64,000 bases of DNA from Actinomycetota bacterium (GTDB taxonomy: Bacteria; Actinomycetota; CADDZG01; JAHWKV01), in assembly GCA_019347715.1 (NCBI GenBank), contig JAHWKU010000010.1, forward strand, positions 10,805 to 74,804, given 5' to 3'. The position numbers and the translations under genes were made by a program. Within the stretch, counting starts at the first letter, position 1. Every line of letters starts with the position of its first letter. Shown in pieces: positions 10,596-41,237 of the stretch. The notes beneath the pieces were generated by a model. The model did no database searches. It saw only the letters and a program-made list of their open reading frames with translations, and was not told the origin of the DNA.

Positions 10596-10626
10596 GGGGG
10601 GCGCGACTCACAGAATTTTCCAGGGA
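10596..10626 (+). repeat. interspersed repeat family A copy (core GGCGCGACTCACAGAATTTTCCAGG)
   Basis: Sits in the 46-bp gmd-epimerase intergenic spacer. Confidence 0.85.
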
Positions 10627-10631
10627 TTCTG

Positions 10632-11540
10632 ATGCGAGCCGTTGTCACCGGCGGGGGCGGCTTCATAGGCAGCCACCTGACCGAACGTCTTCACGCGGAG
10701 GGCCATGAGATCCTTGTGATCGACGACCTGAGCTCGGGAGAGTCGCGGGTCAGCATCATCGAGGATCTTGGGATCGAGATAATCCGGGCCGACATCCGGT
10801 CCGATCAAGCCTCGGCAGCGATCGCTTCCTTTCGGCCCGAGGCGCTGTTCCACCTGGCGGCACAGATGGACGTGAGACGTTCGGTGGACGATCCTGCATT
10901 CGACGCCGACGTGAACGTTCTCGGGACTCTTCGGATGCTATCGGCCGCGGCCGACGTGGGGGCCCGCTTCATCAACACCTCTTCCGGGGGTGCGATGTAC
11001 GGCGAGCTGCCCCCCGATAGCGACGGCTTCGACGAGGAATCGCGTCCAGCGCCGATGTCTCCATACGGCATCAGCAAGCTCGCGGGGGAGCATTACTGTC
11101 GGTTCTTCGGTGAGTTCCGGGGAATTGAGTTTGTGAGTCTCGCCCTTGCCAATGTCTACGGCCCCCGGCAGGACCCTCACGGGGAGGCAGGCGTTGTCGC
11201 GATCTTCGGACGGAAGCTCCTTGATAGTGAGCCGTGTGTGATCTACGGAGACGGCAAGCAGACTCGTGATTACGTTTTCGTCGGCGACGTCGTTGACGCG
11301 TATCTTGCCGCGCTCGACCGGGGGACAGGGGAGACGGTAAACATTGGGACCGGCGTCGAGACGAGCGTCGTCGACCTATACGCGCAGATGGCAAGCCTCA
11401 TCGGCACCGACGCCGAGCCGGTCTTCGAGCCCGAGCGGGCCGGAGAGCTTCGACGCGTCGCCCTTGACGTCTCCAGGGCCGAGCGAGTCCTCGGCTGGAC
11501 ACCGAAGACGCCCCTCGCGGAAGGGCTCCGGGCCCTGTAG
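10632..11540 (+). CDS. NAD-dependent epimerase/dehydratase (GalE-like)
   Basis: 302 aa. MRAVVTGGGGFIGSHLTERL..., YGISK (YxxxK). Extended SDR fold. Confidence 0.8.
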   Translation: MRAVVTGGGGFIGSHLTERLHAEGHEILVIDDLSSGESRVSIIEDLGIEIIRADIRSDQASAAIASFRPEALFHLAAQMDVRRSVDDPAFDADVNVLGTLRMLSAAADVGARFINTSSGGAMYGELPPDSDGFDEESRPAPMSPYGISKLAGEHYCRFFGEFRGIEFVSLALANVYGPRQDPHGEAGVVAIFGRKLLDSEPCVIYGDGKQTRDYVFVGDVVDAYLAALDRGTGETVNIGTGVETSVVDLYAQMASLIGTDAEPVFEPERAGELRRVALDVSRAERVLGWTPKTPLAEGLRAL

Positions 11541-12536: not shown

Positions 12537-12567
12537 GTTTTCCAATTTCTGTGAGTCGCGCCCCCCG
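12537..12567 (-). repeat. interspersed repeat family A copy (reverse orientation)
   Basis: ttttccaatttctgtgagtcgcgcccccc, between the DUF3105 gene and fcl. Confidence 0.85.
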
Positions 12568-13997: not shown

Positions 13998-14055
13998 CCT
14001 ACGGCCCCCACCGGGGGCCCACCCGAGTCACCCAGCGCGCCACCGGCGACAGCGT

Positions 14056-14108
14056 CTTTTTTGTTCGCGAATGCGAACACTTTTGCACTCGGCGGCGCGA
14101 ACAAAAAA
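14056..14108 (+). repeat. hairpin repeat family B copy 1 (13-bp perfect stem TTTTTTGTTCGCG / CGCGAACAAAAAA, 26-nt loop)
   Basis: Between cofE and the DUF559 gene. The loop contains GAATGCGAAC, which can alternatively pair with GTTCGC. Confidence 0.8.
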
Positions 14109-14141
14109 ATGCGAGGGGCCATCCCCCTCAATTCGCAGATC

Positions 14142-15077
14142 TCAACGCCTCGTCCCCGTCTTACCCTTAGTCCTCGACTCGATGGCCACGCGGATCGCTT
14201 CGGCCACCGCCTTGGATTGCCGAGTCACCATGTACCACGTGAACCTCAGGACCAGCCACCCGTTCAAGATCAATACGTTCTGGCGATCGGTGTCCCTCTC
14301 GTGGGCCCGCCGGCCGAGATGGAATTCGTTGCCGTCGGCCTCGATGGCGATCCCGAGGTCTGGATACGCGAAGTCTGAAACAAAGCATTGATCGCCGATG
14401 TTGATCTTGTACTGAGGGATCGCCGGTGGGAGCCTCTCCTCTTCGAAAATCCGGTTCATCCTGCGCTCCAATTCGGTGCGGATCTTTTCTGGCAGCGACA
14501 TTCGCTGGTCGAGCAAGTTCCGGAAGGTCGTAAGCCCACGGAGGCCCTGCCGGCTTTCTCTCAGCAGCACATCCAGAAGAATTGAAGGCTTCGTCTTGCC
14601 CTTGATTAGAGCCTCATCGAGAAGCCGTTCAACCAAGCTGGGGGGCACTACGGCCCCCAGGGTCAGCAGCGTCCGTGGGATCGAGGTAACGGGGATCCCC
14701 TCGATCCGTCTCACATCGATGGGATCGATTTTCCCGTAGTGCACTTTCATCCCCTTGGGGGCCCGAACTCTCTTCCGCAAGGTGATCTCGACCACATCGG
14801 ATTTGATTGAGAGCTCGTGAACTCGGGCAGCGCATCGATGCGAAGCCACCGCCTCGTCTCCTCCCCAAGTGACCGCCCCGGCCACACGGGTGGGCCACTC
14901 CAGCCGATCTCCGTTGAAACGAAAGACGGCTGGATAGAGACCGGCCAGGTGTCCCGAATTCACCAATCGTCTGATCGTGTAGTTGGGGATTCCCAGTCGG
15001 TTCATCTGATCAGCTGAAATGACCCCGCGCCGGCGTTCTGCAAGGAGAATGGCTCTTTCGATTCGGTTCGAGTCCAT
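14142..15077 (-). CDS. DUF559 (Vsr-like endonuclease fold) protein with AbiEi-like N-terminal domain
   Basis: 311 aa. N-terminal wHTH-like region (GVISADQMNRLGIPNYTIRRLVNSGHL). C-terminal DFAYPDLGIAIEADGNEFH...DTDRQNVLILNGWLVLRF is typical of DUF559. Confidence 0.65.
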   Translation of the reverse strand: MDSNRIERAILLAERRRGVISADQMNRLGIPNYTIRRLVNSGHLAGLYPAVFRFNGDRLEWPTRVAGAVTWGGDEAVASHRCAARVHELSIKSDVVEITLRKRVRAPKGMKVHYGKIDPIDVRRIEGIPVTSIPRTLLTLGAVVPPSLVERLLDEALIKGKTKPSILLDVLLRESRQGLRGLTTFRNLLDQRMSLPEKIRTELERRMNRIFEEERLPPAIPQYKINIGDQCFVSDFAYPDLGIAIEADGNEFHLGRRAHERDTDRQNVLILNGWLVLRFTWYMVTRQSKAVAEAIRVAIESRTKGKTGTRR

Positions 15078-15144
15078 GCCTCATATCAAAGCGGGACCCT
15101 GTGACAAAAGTCGACGTTTTCGCGACCCGGGGAGGCCTTGGCAT

Positions 15145-15193
15145 TTCTGTTCGCGAATCCGAACACTTTTACGCCTGCGCTCGCCAACAAAAA
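15145..15193 (+). repeat. hairpin repeat family B copy 2 (direct orientation relative to copy 1)
   Basis: TTTCTGTTCGCGAATCCGAACACTTTTACGCCTGCGCTCGCCAACAAAAA. 27 of 28 positions are identical to copy 1 over GTTCGCGAATNCGAACACTTTT. Between the DUF559 gene and cofD. Confidence 0.8.
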
Positions 15194-15213
15194 CCTGGCG
15201 GTGCCCGGTCCGG

Positions 15214-16217: not shown

Positions 16218-18656
16218 GTGCCGCTCACGGAGACCGAGGCAATCGCGCTCGCTGATGAAATCGCCGCGCACGGCCTGCCCGATCACGCAAGAACCCAAAG
16301 CGCCGAACTGAGAGACAGCGCCTTCGGCAACCGCATCACCTACTCACCGAAAGTCTTCATCCCGCTGACGATGCTTTGCCGCGACATCTGTCACTACTGC
16401 ACTTTTGCCAAGCCGCCTTCCAAGGGGCAGCGGGCGTACATGTCGATCGACGAAATGATCGAGATCGCACGCGCCGGTGCGGCGGCCGGTTGCAAGGAAG
16501 CGCTTTTCACTTTGGGGGACAAGCCCGAGCTTCGATACCGGGCCGCCCGCGAAGAGCTCGACCGGTTGGGATTCGAATCAACGATCGCGTATCTCGCCCA
16601 CGCGGCCAAGGCGGTGTTGGATGAGACCGGGCTGCTCCCGCATCTCAATCCGGGGATCCTGTCTCCCGACGACTTCGAGCTTCTGCGCGACGTCGCTCCT
16701 TCGATGGGGATCATGATCGAATCAACCTCGGACCGGCTGCTGCAAAAGGGAATGGCCCACCACGGAAGTCCTGACAAGGTTCCGGCGCTTCGGCTTGCAA
16801 CACTCGAGCTGGCCGGGCGTTTCCAGGTCCCATTCACGACTGGGATCCTGATCGGCATCGGAGAGAACTGGCGCGAACGTGCGGAGACCTTGCTGGCGAT
16901 TGCGGAGTCGCATCGTCGCAACGGTCATGTCCAAGAGGTGATCGTGCAGAACTTCCGGGCAAAGCACGACACCTTGATGAGCGATCATCCCGAGCCGGAC
17001 GACGACGAGATGCTGGCTTCGATCGCGCTGGCGCGCCTCATCCTCCCAGAGGACATCAGCGTTCAGGCCCCGCCGAACCTGGCCTCATCGGACGAGAATC
17101 TCGTTTCCTACATCGAGCACGGAATAAACGATTGGGGCGGCGTCTCTCCGGTAACGATCGATCACGTAAACCCGGAGGCCCCCTGGCCCGACCTCGACCG
17201 GCTCGAAGCGGTGACTGCGAGGGCCGGCGGCGTGTTGGTGCCGCGCCTTACCGTCTATCCGCGCTACGCCTTCGACGATGAGTGGGTTTCGAAGAAAGTG
17301 CTTCCGGCGGTCCTAGCCGCAGCCGACGGCGAGGGCCTCGCATTCGAAGGCCCCTGGTACTCCGGCGCCCCCGCCCCCTCGCGGGGGCGCGACTCACAGA
17401 ATTTTCCAGGAAACCCCCCCGGGGGGCGCGACTCACAGGATTTTCCAGGGGCCCGCACGCGCGGCCCCGGCGTCGCGCGCGCCCCCTCGCGGCCCCGGCC
17501 CCGTGCCGATTTCGAAACCGCCATCGCTAAGGCTGGCGGCAGTGAACTTAACGAAGACGAAATCACCGTCCTTCTGACCGCGCGGGGCCCCGAGTACGAG
17601 CGTCTCATCGAAGCCGCCGACGCGCTCAGACAAAAAGTCAGCGGCGATACGGTCACCTTCGTCGTCAATCGCAATATCAACTACACCAACATGTGCTACT
17701 TCCGATGCGGATTCTGCGCGTTCAGCAAGGGCCCGAAGTCCTTGAACCTGCGCGGCGATCCATATCTGATCTCTTTCGACGAGATCGCGGAGCGCACCAT
17801 CGAGGCCCGCGAGCGCGGCGCTACAGAAGTTTGCCTTCAGGGTGGTATCCATCCGTCGTTCACCGGCGACTACTACGTGAAGGTCGTCCGTTCGATCAAG
17901 CAGGCGGTCCCCGACATCCACGTTCACGCCTTTAGTCCCCTGGAGATCTGGCAAGGCGCCGAGACGAAGGGCGTTACGATCCGCGATTTGCTTTGGGAGC
18001 TGAAGGATGAGGGGCTCGGCACGCTTCCCGGGACAGCCGCAGAGATTCTCGACGACGAGGTGCGGGCGATCATCTGTCCCGACAAGATCAATACGGCTCA
18101 GTGGAGCGAGGTTGCCCGTACTGCGCACTCACTCGGTCTGAAGATGTCCACGACGATGATGTTCGGACATGCCGACACATACCGGTCGTGGGCCCGTCAC
18201 CTGATCGTTCTTCGAGATATTCAGAAGGACAGCGGCGGATTCACAGAGTTCGTGCCGCTTCCATTCGTCCACATGGCTGCGCCGATCTTTCTGAAAGGGA
18301 AAGCAAGGCGGGGGCCCACGTTTGCCGAGACGATCAAGGTGCACGCGGTGGCGCGCCTTGCGCTGGATCCGTGGATCACGAACATACAGGCCTCGTGGGT
18401 GAAGCTCGGGGTCGAGGGTTCGCAGGTCGCACTGAATGCCGGCGCCAACGACCTCGGCGGGACACTCATGAACGAGACGATCTCGCGCGCCGCTGGGGCC
18501 TCGCACGGCCAGGAGATCACGGCGGACGAGATGAAGCGCATCATCTCCGACGCCGGCCGCCCCTGGGCCCAGCGCTCCACCACCTACGTACCCTTGGAGG
18601 CGCGACTCACAGAATCTTCCAGGCCCCCGACTGCGTCGGGGGCCTGTCGCGCGTAA
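16218..18656 (+). CDS. fbiC: FO synthase, bifunctional CofG/CofH (radical SAM)
   Basis: 812 aa. Two radical-SAM cysteine triads, CRDICHYCTF and CYFRCGFCAF. The linker and C-terminal tail contain copies of interspersed repeat family A. Stop TAA at 18654-18656 lies inside the repeat. Confidence 0.92.
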   Translation: MPLTETEAIALADEIAAHGLPDHARTQSAELRDSAFGNRITYSPKVFIPLTMLCRDICHYCTFAKPPSKGQRAYMSIDEMIEIARAGAAAGCKEALFTLGDKPELRYRAAREELDRLGFESTIAYLAHAAKAVLDETGLLPHLNPGILSPDDFELLRDVAPSMGIMIESTSDRLLQKGMAHHGSPDKVPALRLATLELAGRFQVPFTTGILIGIGENWRERAETLLAIAESHRRNGHVQEVIVQNFRAKHDTLMSDHPEPDDDEMLASIALARLILPEDISVQAPPNLASSDENLVSYIEHGINDWGGVSPVTIDHVNPEAPWPDLDRLEAVTARAGGVLVPRLTVYPRYAFDDEWVSKKVLPAVLAAADGEGLAFEGPWYSGAPAPSRGRDSQNFPGNPPGGRDSQDFPGARTRGPGVARAPSRPRPRADFETAIAKAGGSELNEDEITVLLTARGPEYERLIEAADALRQKVSGDTVTFVVNRNINYTNMCYFRCGFCAFSKGPKSLNLRGDPYLISFDEIAERTIEARERGATEVCLQGGIHPSFTGDYYVKVVRSIKQAVPDIHVHAFSPLEIWQGAETKGVTIRDLLWELKDEGLGTLPGTAAEILDDEVRAIICPDKINTAQWSEVARTAHSLGLKMSTTMMFGHADTYRSWARHLIVLRDIQKDSGGFTEFVPLPFVHMAAPIFLKGKARRGPTFAETIKVHAVARLALDPWITNIQASWVKLGVEGSQVALNAGANDLGGTLMNETISRAAGASHGQEITADEMKRIISDAGRPWAQRSTTYVPLEARLTESSRPPTASGACRA
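17384..17411 (+). repeat. interspersed repeat family A copy, in-frame inside fbiC linker
   Basis: gggggcgcgactcacagaattttccagg encodes GRDSQNFPG. Confidence 0.85.
17422..17451 (+). repeat. interspersed repeat family A copy, in-frame inside fbiC linker (tandem to previous)
   Basis: ggggggcgcgactcacaggattttccaggg encodes GGRDSQDFPG. Confidence 0.85.
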
Positions 18657-18687
18657 TCATCTGGAAAAATCTGTGAGTCGCGCCTCC
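18597..18687. repeat. complete palindromic element of repeat family A (about 91 bp; 27-bp terminal inverted repeats plus internal hairpin)
   Basis: GGAGGCGCGACTCACAGAATCTTCCAG-gcccccgactgcgtcgggggc-ctgtcgcgcgtaatcat-CTGGAAAAATCTGTGAGTCGCGCCTCC. Contains the fbiC stop codon. Confidence 0.85.
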
Positions 18688-28690: not shown

Positions 28691-28717
28691 CTGGAAAATC
28701 CTGTGAGTCGCGCCTCC
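28691..28717 (-). repeat. interspersed repeat family A copy (reverse orientation) at left edge of AT-richer island
   Basis: ctggaaaatcctgtgagtcgcgcctcc, preceded by the hairpin ggggccccctagggcccc. Confidence 0.85.
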
Positions 28718-39779: not shown

Positions 39780-41237
39780 ATGCCGAAGAGAGTGGCACTA
39801 GTCGTGGACAATCCTAACCGGGATCTGCCCGGCCTTGTCTTGCTGGGACGGTATCTATGCTCTCAGGACTTGACTTGTTACCTGGTTCCAATGAATCTCC
39901 AAAATCTCGAACTGTTGGCCTTGGCCCCTGATTTCGTGGTATTCAATTATCTGCGTAGCAATAATGAGGATCATGTAAGGCGCTTACACCGCGCGAATAT
40001 CTCCTATGGATGCCTTGACACAGAGGGGGGGGTAGTCTCAAAGGAGATATTCCAAGCAGTTGCTCCCAAGAGCCGCGATGTGTTGGCTGATGCATCCTTC
40101 TATGCCGCTTGGGGCCCAGCCAGTGCAGATATGGTGCAGAAGGCGGGGCTGTACTCCTCGGACCAAGTGGCCATAACTGGAAACCCTCGTTTTGACTTTT
40201 ACGTAGACCCTTGGAAGAAACCAGCGCTGGAAACATCCGATTATGCGGAATTCTTCCAAGGGAAGTCCATCCTCTTTAATGGAACGTTCCCTCTTGCAAA
40301 TCCTGGCTTCAGTACGCCTACTCGAGAAGTCGAGATGTACGTTCGGCAATTCGGGATGGATCGAGAATTGATCGAATCAACTCAGCAGCAGCAGGCTGCC
40401 GTGCTGGGGAAGTTTTCCTCACTGGCTCAAGAAGTAGCTACCCACATCCCAGAAGCGAAGGTTGTATATCGGCCCCATCCGTTCGAGCGACTTGAGACTT
40501 ACACGGATAAATTCAGGGCTCCAAATTTGAGAGCCGCGCTGCAAGGAACAGTCGATGGGTGGATATTGAGAGCTGATGCGCTCGTCCACTTCAATTGCTC
40601 TACCGCGATCGAGGCCGGGATGGCGGGAGTCCCCGCTTTCATTCCTACGTGGCTGACGGATCTGGTTCAATCGTCGTTACTGCGACCCATCCCGGAAATT
40701 GAAAATGTAAGCGTTGGTTGCGATTCACCAAGAGACTTGAAGGCAGTACTGCGGGAGGCATTAGAGCAAGACTTTGAAATTCCAGCGAGGGTAGGTGCTG
40801 CTATGGAGAGGATTGTGGCTGACTGGTACTTCGCTCTCGACGGATCCTCTCACGAGCGCGTCGGAAGTCTCATCCTTGAACACGCCGAGTCGACCAAAGG
40901 AGCTGACCGAGCTCAATGCTCTCGGCTGATTAGGAGTATTGGCAATGCAAGAGGGATCAAGGGCAGAACTGCGCGTTTCGCTCGAACGGTCCTGGGGGCG
41001 GAGCTCTACTCAACTCTTCGGAAGCGGTTACCAGGAGGATCTATTGGCGCCTGGGAACTCTCCGGCAAACACTTTTCCGTCCAAGACGTGCGAAAGATAT
41101 TGACGGCGATTGACCCGTCTCAAGGTGTCTCTGCGGAAAGCGCACAGGTTCGGGGGGAGTATAGCGAACCCTTGATCTCTGGCTCTTCGATTACCCTTTT
41201 TCCTTCGCACGATCGAGCAACATTAGGTCGAACGTGA
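39780..41237 (+). CDS. GT-B superfamily transferase, TagF/KpsS-like (paralog A); candidate polyol-phosphate or nonulosonic-acid transferase
   Basis: 485 aa. Motif ITGNPRFDFYVD and C-terminal ...HFNCSTAIEAGMAGVPAFI resemble the GYPRxD and SS..FD.....KPII blocks of CDP-glycerol glycerophosphotransferase/capsule-synthesis families. Paralogous to 43676..45178. Confidence 0.5.
   Translation: MPKRVALVVDNPNRDLPGLVLLGRYLCSQDLTCYLVPMNLQNLELLALAPDFVVFNYLRSNNEDHVRRLHRANISYGCLDTEGGVVSKEIFQAVAPKSRDVLADASFYAAWGPASADMVQKAGLYSSDQVAITGNPRFDFYVDPWKKPALETSDYAEFFQGKSILFNGTFPLANPGFSTPTREVEMYVRQFGMDRELIESTQQQQAAVLGKFSSLAQEVATHIPEAKVVYRPHPFERLETYTDKFRAPNLRAALQGTVDGWILRADALVHFNCSTAIEAGMAGVPAFIPTWLTDLVQSSLLRPIPEIENVSVGCDSPRDLKAVLREALEQDFEIPARVGAAMERIVADWYFALDGSSHERVGSLILEHAESTKGADRAQCSRLIRSIGNARGIKGRTARFARTVLGAELYSTLRKRLPGGSIGAWELSGKHFSVQDVRKILTAIDPSQGVSAESAQVRGEYSEPLISGSSITLFPSHDRATLGRT

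Follow-up and report, generated by a model that had tools for sequence, protein, structure and literature searches.

The 64,000-nucleotide stretch of DNA analysed here (the window; positions 10,805 to 74,804 of contig JAHWKU010000010.1, assembly GCA_019347715.1 of an Actinomycetota bacterium) carries a 1.2-kb cassette with one gene inside, located between the F420 genes cofD and cofE. The gene encodes a fusion of an AbiEi-type DNA-binding module with a Vsr-type (DUF559) nuclease and stands between two copies of a 50-nt palindromic hairpin. Comparison with loci of relatives and homologues, which are designated by L-numbers below, demonstrated that the cassette is a discrete accessory unit, variably present and replaced by old alleles at a fixed site. 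The hairpin stem is maintained by compensatory changes, and both the gene and the palindromes are under purifying selection. This layout is found again throughout an actinobacterial family that is very large and uncharacterised, and in which the palindrome sequence follows the protein lineage. Because of their size, position, and lineage specificity, we infer that the palindromes are the cognate sites of the encoded protein, and they are probably substrates of the cassette's own nuclease. The explanation that we favour, with some reserve, is that of a selfish, horizontally exchanged cassette that acts at specific sites and whose palindromes are acted on by its own nuclease.

The cassette and its two hairpin copies

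The arrangement set out in a preliminary description of the locus, that is, a cofD-cofE pair split by a DUF559/AbiEi-like gene with flanking hairpins, was borne out by the gene calls, the Pfam matches, and the alignment of the repeats. The upstream copy of the hairpin ends 66 nt 5′ of the start codon of the nuclease gene, and the downstream copy begins 34 nt past its stop codon and ends 60 nt ahead of the start codon of cofE. The two copies are in direct orientation and identical at 39 of 50 positions (78%), the agreement being concentrated in the first 28 nt (25/28, where 27/28 had been reported for the conserved core) and lower in the last 22 nt (14/22). The 26-nt loop given earlier was the same on re-measurement. 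When the window was searched with the 23-nt core of the repeat, allowing up to three mismatches, only the two cassette copies were recovered from the 64 kb, and no match was expected according to 100 shuffles. Extra palindrome copies were also almost absent from 226 kb of DNA flanking other loci of the family, in agreement with the expectation that these hairpins go with the DUF559 gene and are no ubiquitous intergenic motif.

The stem is perfect in the left-hand (downstream) copy, with 12-13 bp, but not in the right-hand (upstream) one, where only 10 of 12 positions pair. The left copy folds as the long hairpin, whereas the 3′ arm of the right copy, CGCCAACAAAAA, introduces two stem mismatches and its minimum-energy fold is not the long hairpin. 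An ungapped alignment of the right copy to those of three other alleles was obtained. An interpretation of it as a hybrid of two hairpin types was dropped, as it rests on single-base differences. The repeat itself is not built like an intrinsic terminator, since the stem is followed by an A-run on both strands. The T-run noted 5′ of the stem is present on both strands as well, but on the gene strand it is at the same time the tail of a separate, canonical terminator-like hairpin and overlaps the 5′ arm of the downstream copy. This separate hairpin does have the build of an intrinsic terminator, a G+C-rich stem with the U-run directly after it. On the other side of the gene, the leader, which extends from the upstream copy to the start codon, is about 85% conserved between the window and allele L120, whose proteins are only 56% identical. 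A promoter consensus scan of the cassette returned no sites, so promoter positions are presumed only, and no Rfam family matched at its gathering score across the whole window.

The cassette encodes an AbiEi-Vsr fusion protein

The N-terminal part of the protein had been called an AbiEi-like domain, which was correct as to the match but understated its extent, as residues 1-200 make up the complete AbiEi antitoxin/repressor fold with winged helix and C-terminal domain. Residues 200-311 form a Vsr/DUF559 nuclease of the EDxHD type. Both Pfam matches exceeded their cut-offs (DUF559, 30.4 bits against 20.6; AbiEi_4, 28.6 against 25) and were accompanied by a match to MTES_1575, and the AbiEi profiles of PADLOC covered residues 3-201 with an E-value of about 1e-24 (1.2e-24 for a match spanning residues 12-171). 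In the AlphaFold model (predicted local distance difference test, pLDDT, 92), residues 1-200 matched AbiEi (6y8q; Foldseek E = 4e-6, template-modelling (TM) score normalised to the target 0.64) and Rv2827c (1zel). For residues 200-311, the matches were I-Bth0305I, a homing endonuclease, in its catalytic domain (3r3p, target TM 0.8), and 3hrl, a DUF559 protein (E = 2.5e-7), with target TM scores of 0.71-0.82 for the nuclease part. The columns of D235, E246, D248, H253, D262, and R265 were invariant or nearly so among 38 homologues. The ratio of nonsynonymous to synonymous divergence (dN/dS) of the nuclease gene was 0.1-0.27, from which it follows that the gene is functional.

No AbiEii (DUF1814) toxin gene adjoins the nuclease gene, its neighbours being cofE downstream and cofD upstream, and the same single-gene layout without AbiEii was found in L032, L033, L034, L120, and L119. 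A methyltransferase gene was adjacent neither in the window nor in the related loci. Pfam, NCBIfam, PADLOC, and fold searches detected no HUH/Y1 transposase domain, and domain and profile searches found no tyrosine recombinase in the cassette. The designation "non-autonomous", which the unit had been given, is not supported, as the cassette encodes its own module for site-specific DNA binding and, fused to it, a nuclease whose catalytic residues are conserved.

Presence, absence, and replacement of the cassette at cofD-cofE

The nearest species representatives in the genome collection had a CofD only about 56% identical to that of the window. That cofD and cofE are normally adjacent could be confirmed: they are adjacent or overlapping in the distant Actinomycetota metagenome-assembled genomes L002, L007, and L010, and overlapping, with no spacer, in the nearer relatives L116-L118 (CofD 77-81%). 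The cassette was present between the two genes in four lineages, namely the window, L122, L032, and L120. A contig from the sequencing run SRR15827330 was identical to the window across the cassette. L115 (CofD 97% identical, cofD DNA 93%) carries neither cassette nor hairpin, and its cofD-cofE spacer of 167 nt consists of a doublet of an unrelated repeat resembling repetitive extragenic palindromes (REP), with 28-nt arms and an 85-nt spacer. A hairpin remnant in the L115 spacer was considered and rejected, the local alignments being no better than those of shuffles. This synteny comparison, in which presence varies among close relatives, substantiated the earlier proposal of a discrete cassette.

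The alleles themselves also differed between close relatives. L032 and L120 have nearly the same flanking genes (CofD 98% and CofE 91% identical), whereas their nuclease proteins are 57% identical and their hairpins differ. The synonymous divergence (dS) between these two loci was 0.29 for cofD and 0.58 for cofE against 3.9 for the nuclease gene, and between the window and L122 it was 0.31 for cofE against 1.66 for the nuclease gene. Accelerated protein evolution was rejected as the source of the allele divergence, because synonymous sites are saturated in the cassette and not in the flanks and dN/dS is low. The homology of L032 and L120 stops at the cofD stop codon and restarts at CCGTAGGATG just upstream of cofE. 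Since these breakpoints lie outside the hairpins, the hairpins are part of the swapped unit. Taken together, old alleles were moved into close genetic backgrounds, and at least one gain or loss took place. The data fit the cassette's own activity as well as ordinary recombination through cofD/cofE and do not tell one from the other. Members of the subfamily also occur elsewhere: L034 and L121 lie, in opposite orientation, between the two genes that make up an acyl-CoA carboxylase operon, and L033 adjoins a beta-lactamase-like gene.

Selection on the palindromes

In seven orthologous loci with diverged intergenic DNA, the 16-nt arms of the palindrome were invariant, while its 4-nt centre varied. 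Within the subfamily of the window, seven hairpin copies from four alleles could be aligned without gaps, and 9 of the 13 pairs of the stem showed changes on both sides. Of the stem cells, 89% were paired as compared with 40-50% for a slid partner, and none of 500 shuffles reached the observed values. The 3′ part of the loop together with the top of the stem, (T/G)TGGCCGGATT-CGCGA, was conserved among the alleles. In the protein, the winged-helix domain was the part that diverged most between distinct alleles (30-48% identity, the other two domains having 45-71%).

In the L062 subfamily, the outer flanks, that is, the sequences left of the upstream copy and right of the downstream copy, were complementary in 7/7 loci and covaried (TTCCT/AGGAA to AACCT/AGGTT), and the inner flanks formed a second complementary pair. 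This complementarity, read by eye from the printed sequences and seen in one subfamily only, looks as if the cassette had been inserted into the centre of a longer palindrome. Two further interpretations were abandoned. Identical flanking palindromes cannot serve as a sign of recent insertion, because orthologues 12-33% apart in DNA keep perfect arms, and palindromes shared among metagenome loci do not reflect transposition, since these loci are orthologous and collinear, which means vertical inheritance.

The layout in a large actinobacterial family

In a library clustered at 50% identity, the family comprised 15,767 cluster representatives at E <= 1e-3, of which 6,828 also passed E <= 1e-10. 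Among the 150 best matches listed, the majority were full length, about 300 aa. Each of the three closest homologues (52-58% identity) had two palindromic repeats of 38-50 nt about 1,040 nt apart. Among 76 loci of more distant metagenome homologues (27-37% identity), each upstream flank was aligned to the downstream flank, and approximately 47 loci scored above the 95th percentile of mismatched-flank controls. Nineteen of the loci were above the 99th percentile, a percentile that is inflated as related loci share a palindrome. The repeats of the family are 35-60 nt long and spaced by 990-1110 nt, and many of them are almost perfect palindromes whose centre is rich in A+T. Between the end of the upstream copy and the start codon there are 35-100 nt, and the downstream copy starts anywhere from 40 nt before to 46 nt after the stop codon. 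The cultured actinobacterium Tsukamurella tyrosinosolvens NCTC13231 (protein WP_068740572.1) has the same gene-between-palindromes layout. Its records NZ_LR134454.1, NZ_LR134451.1, and NZ_LR134464.1 (L119, L123, and L124) are labelled plasmids 12, 9, and 22, although they carry housekeeping genes (pntAB, nrdF) and look like pieces of the chromosome.

The relative orientation of the two copies was found to be mixed, 18 loci being better aligned as direct and 24 as inverted repeats. The asymmetric centre of the palindrome flips during evolution: the upstream palindrome of L060 (1422-1489) is 95% identical to its orthologues in L061 (2858-2924) and L096 (2861-2926) and stands in the opposite orientation. 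A fixed direct-repeat geometry for the family was ruled out on these grounds. In L098, the downstream palindrome of the cassette is tandemly duplicated (1286-1347 and 1363-1407).

Solo copies of the hairpin

The preliminary description knew the two cassette copies, which are both present, but a third copy in the window had been missed. This solo copy, 7 kb from the cassette, is inverted relative to the cassette copies, matches them at 76-82%, and has the loop motif conserved. It lies between an ECF (extracytoplasmic function) sigma-factor gene (22240-22980) and a DUF5667 gene (21202-22095) and thus splits a sigma/anti-sigma gene pair. It is nested in a 20-bp outer inverted repeat (22133-22250). 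In the relative L125, whose DUF5667 protein is 88% identical, there is an 80-nt spacer at this site and the hairpin is absent. Solo copies were found in other members of the family as well: L062 has a perfect solo palindrome (935-970) between convergent genes, 2 kb from its cassette, and in Tsukamurella (L123 and L124) solo copies lie between convergent genes and between divergent genes.

Some further observations were made on structures of this kind in the window. One arm of the outer repeat around the solo hairpin coincides with the last bases of the sigma-factor gene, stop codon included, and a 131-nt stretch around the solo hairpin folds with z = -6.7. The only other structure of that size class in the window is an unrelated hairpin at 40209-40261, CCTTGGAAGAA...TTCTTCCAAGG, whose 11 stem pairs are all matched and whose loop measures 31 nt.

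Other features of the locus

The next gene after cofE is a DUF3105 gene, and fbiC is divergent from cofD. In L115, a clean insertion of 844 nt (993-1836, corresponding to 16142/16143 of the window) was found between the fbiC-cofD intergenic region and cofD. It contains an open reading frame (ORF) of 95 aa without a family match and another for a DUF6036 nucleotidyltransferase-like protein, which may be a small pair of the toxin-antitoxin type. L120 has an additional 163-aa ORF just upstream of cofD. Because of this insertion and the extra ORF, the F420 locus seems to be a hotspot for small inserts. A dispersed REP-like repeat, GG(A/G)GGCGCGACTCACAGAATTT(T/C)C, had seven copies in the window at up to three mismatches, where none was expected. 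Two of its copies lie in frame within the interdomain linker of fbiC and encode GRDSQNFPG twice. The doublet in the cofD-cofE spacer of L115 is made of this repeat. The coordinates are collected in Table 1.

Table 1. Positions in the window of the cassette, its parts, the adjoining F420 genes, and the repeats
Feature	Position	Strand	Characteristics
cofD	16149-15214	minus	Pfam CofD, 3.7e-48
Full variable cassette	14007-15213	minus	Bounded by the homology breakpoints between close relatives with different alleles
Upstream (gene-proximal) hairpin copy	15144-15193	minus	Stem 10/12 pairs, loop 26 nt
Cassette leader/promoter region	15078-15143	minus	Third TCGCGA motif GGTCGCGAAAAC, about 15116-15127
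AbiEi-Vsr nuclease gene	15077-14142	minus	311 aa; Pfam DUF559 and AbiEi_4
Terminator-like hairpin	14102-14130 (hairpin 14130-14112)	minus	GAGGGGGATGGCCCCTC, then T7; directly past the stop codon of the nuclease gene
Downstream hairpin copy	14058-14107	minus	Perfect 12-13-bp stem, loop 26 nt
cofE	13997-13281	minus	F420_ligase, 3.5e-67
Solo hairpin copy	22160-22209	plus	Perfect 12-bp stem, 13 bp if extended (22159-22210)
REP-like repeat sites	10597-10620, 12547-12565, 17383-17406, 17422-17445, 18596-18619, 18664-18687, 21006-21029, 24829-24845, 28694-28717		

Discussion

Proposed action of the unit on its own palindromes

The preliminary description saw in the arrangement a small mobile cassette. 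The accessory unit with its presence and absence has stood up to the comparison, but self-driven movement of the cassette is something we infer only. The following course of events is proposed. Two protein molecules would bind each palindrome through their winged helices, as AbiEi does on 2 x 23-bp inverted repeats, and binding at the upstream copy would repress the cassette's own promoter. The nuclease domain would cut at or beside the palindromes. The two copies would thereby represent the ends of a selfish unit that could be exchanged between chromosomes by homing-like or cut-and-rejoin recombination, and the mobile unit might leave or use solo palindromes. In the genome studied here, such a unit would have landed between cofD and cofE, and cofE may need read-through or a new promoter, because the cassette carries its own terminator-like hairpin.

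Several points weigh against this proposal. Binding and cutting of the palindromes by the protein are predictions only. The replacement of alleles could be explained by ordinary homologous recombination through cofD/cofE, the cassette itself being inactive. At occupied sites both palindromes are intact, whereas classical homing disrupts its target, and the single hairpin that had been anticipated at the empty cofD-cofE site was found neither in L115 nor in L116-L118. In L034 and L121, cassette and flanks have diverged at the same pace, and many cassettes are stable at one locus across lineages 12-33% apart in DNA. The mixed orientation of the copies, with flips between orthologues, means that no single integration geometry is supported. 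Several identical cassette copies in one genome region were not seen either. Finally, the phage collection contained no match for the family and the plasmid collection only one, which is probably chromosomal given the housekeeping genes on the Tsukamurella records.

A more far-reaching form of the selfish-cassette explanation would make the unit a new class of mobile element, in which the unit's own AbiEi-Vsr dimer binds and cuts the palindromes, and the unit is excised and rejoined into another palindrome. We regard this class as a tentative possibility, on the doubtful side. It would further imply that the solo palindromes are empty or target sites and that no known transposase or recombinase family takes part, which is equally uncertain and rather unlikely.

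Alternative explanations

One explanation that does without self-driven movement takes the gene for an autoregulated nuclease of the defence or toxin-antitoxin type and the palindromes for its operators only. We consider it possible, though on balance improbable, that the gene is not self-mobile in this sense. Its homology to the whole of AbiEi, for which the operator geometry is known, fits well with such a role, as do the family-wide placement of the upstream palindrome, with 35-100 nt between its end and the start codon, and the fact that each of the three copies in the window is followed, 60-66 nt past its end, by a start codon on the minus strand. The downstream copy would then have to serve looping, insulation, or control of the next gene, with the upstream copy repressing the promoter, a division of labour that we would accept only hesitantly. 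It leaves the near-universal presence of the downstream copy unexplained, as this copy is often followed by a convergent gene (L034) or by none (L033), and solo copies (L123 and L062) sit between convergent genes. Also, the AbiEii toxin partner is absent. Presence and absence together with allele diversity might arise from homologous recombination and balancing selection, as in other defence loci, though we are inclined to doubt this as well. This part agrees with the stable vertical inheritance seen in several clades, the purifying selection on the gene, the absence of the family from plasmids and phages, and an allele divergence comparable to the depth of the host clade. However, pairs of genes that are normally tight are split by the cassette or by the solo hairpin, namely cofD-cofE, biotin carboxylase-carboxyltransferase of the acyl-CoA carboxylase operon, and sigma-anti-sigma, which is the footprint of insertion.

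It is improbable that the structures are recognised as folded single strands and that the unit moves like IS200/IS605, REP/RAYT, or an integron cassette, with the structure defining its ends. The maintenance of the stem by compensatory changes while the sequence drifts would be expected in that case, and in each of the four alleles of the subfamily, the asymmetric loop with its conserved 3′ motif points the same way at either end. Moreover, the solo copies are dispersed in low number, like REPs around a RAYT gene. Against this, the cassette lacks both an HUH/Y1 transposase and a tyrosine recombinase, and its DNA-binding module is the AbiEi winged helix, which binds duplex DNA. Orthologous sets keep the arm sequence itself, beyond mere pairing, and the hairpin is not the fold that the right-hand copy of the window adopts.

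That a hairpin of the host between cofD and cofE was duplicated when the gene was inserted, which had been suggested before, is very improbable: direct-repeat copies do flank the gene in the window, L032, L120, L033, and L034, and long target duplications around nuclease genes have been described (PMC2853133), but the cassette-free sites lack such a hairpin, hosts with 98% identical CofD carry different hairpins that co-vary with the protein allele and must therefore travel with the cassette, homology breaks about 25 nt outside the hairpins and not at their edges, and in many family members the copies are inverted.

Significance

DUF559/AbiEi fusions are among the commonest uncharacterised genes of Actinomycetota and carry no annotation beyond "DUF559" or "AbiEi antitoxin domain protein". 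With two lineage-specific palindromes and allele swaps at fixed sites, this anonymous family becomes a testable system of a protein with its predicted site, and the finding is more general than the locus alone suggested. If the nuclease acts on these sites, genes would be moved here in a new way, and the family would supply sequence-specific nucleases with long sites. If it does not act there, AbiE would gain a new relative that consists of a single protein and has two operators in an unusual layout. In the genome studied here, the operon of an essential cofactor tolerates a selfish insert, and the expression of cofE may be altered. In the literature on DUF559, MTES_1575, and AbiEi-nuclease fusions, searched as an incomplete set, flanking palindromes were not described, which is no proof of novelty.

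Comparison with known systems

The cassette shares features with several known systems and is identical with none of them. The long target duplications of restriction-modification genes in Helicobacter (PMC2853133) likewise concern a nuclease unit with repeats of tens of bases and presence/absence variation. The repeats of the cassette differ in being palindromic and allele-specific, and no single copy is present at the empty sites of L115, L116-L118, and L125. REP/RAYT and IS200/IS605 systems are similar in having a single gene between hairpin copies and a few more copies dispersed in intergenic DNA. However, the cassette protein is no HUH/Y1 transposase, the hairpin is in very low copy compared with REPs (three in 64 kb, two of them at the gene), and the truly REP-like repeat of the same genome is separate and unrelated.

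The fold and the conserved catalytic residues place the C-terminal part of the protein among the PD-(D/E)xK nucleases of the Vsr/DUF559 type. Unlike Vsr proper, the cassette gene has no adjacent cytosine-5 methyltransferase partner. I-Bth0305I is a homodimer with a footprint of about 60 bp, which cuts in the centre of a pseudopalindrome (PMC3239194). The cassette protein has the same C-terminal nuclease fold and is likewise multidomain, and its gene is a selfish-looking insert between conserved host genes. In contrast to I-Bth0305I, it lies outside any intron or intein and uses a different DNA-binding module, and the family is chromosomal and actinobacterial and does not come from phages. It also departs from a homing endonuclease gene in that the gene leaves the putative target unsplit, with an intact one on either side, and the empty alleles (L115, L116-L118) lack the cognate site.

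There is also a resemblance to AbiE. AbiEi is autoregulated through its promoter, where it binds a pair of 23-bp inverted repeats separated by 3 bp, the gap for Rv2827c being 13 bp, and neither of the two proteins binds non-cognate repeats (PMC7319586). Unlike AbiE, the cassette has no AbiEii (DUF1814) nucleotidyltransferase, a Vsr-type nuclease being fused to the antitoxin instead, and the gene is followed by a further copy of the site, an arrangement that has not been described for AbiE. On the other hand, the cassette protein contains the full two-domain fold of the AbiEi proteins of Streptococcus agalactiae (AbiEi) and Mycobacterium tuberculosis (Rv2827c), and the AbiEi operator sites, which total 49-59 bp, are close in size and position to the upstream palindrome found here.

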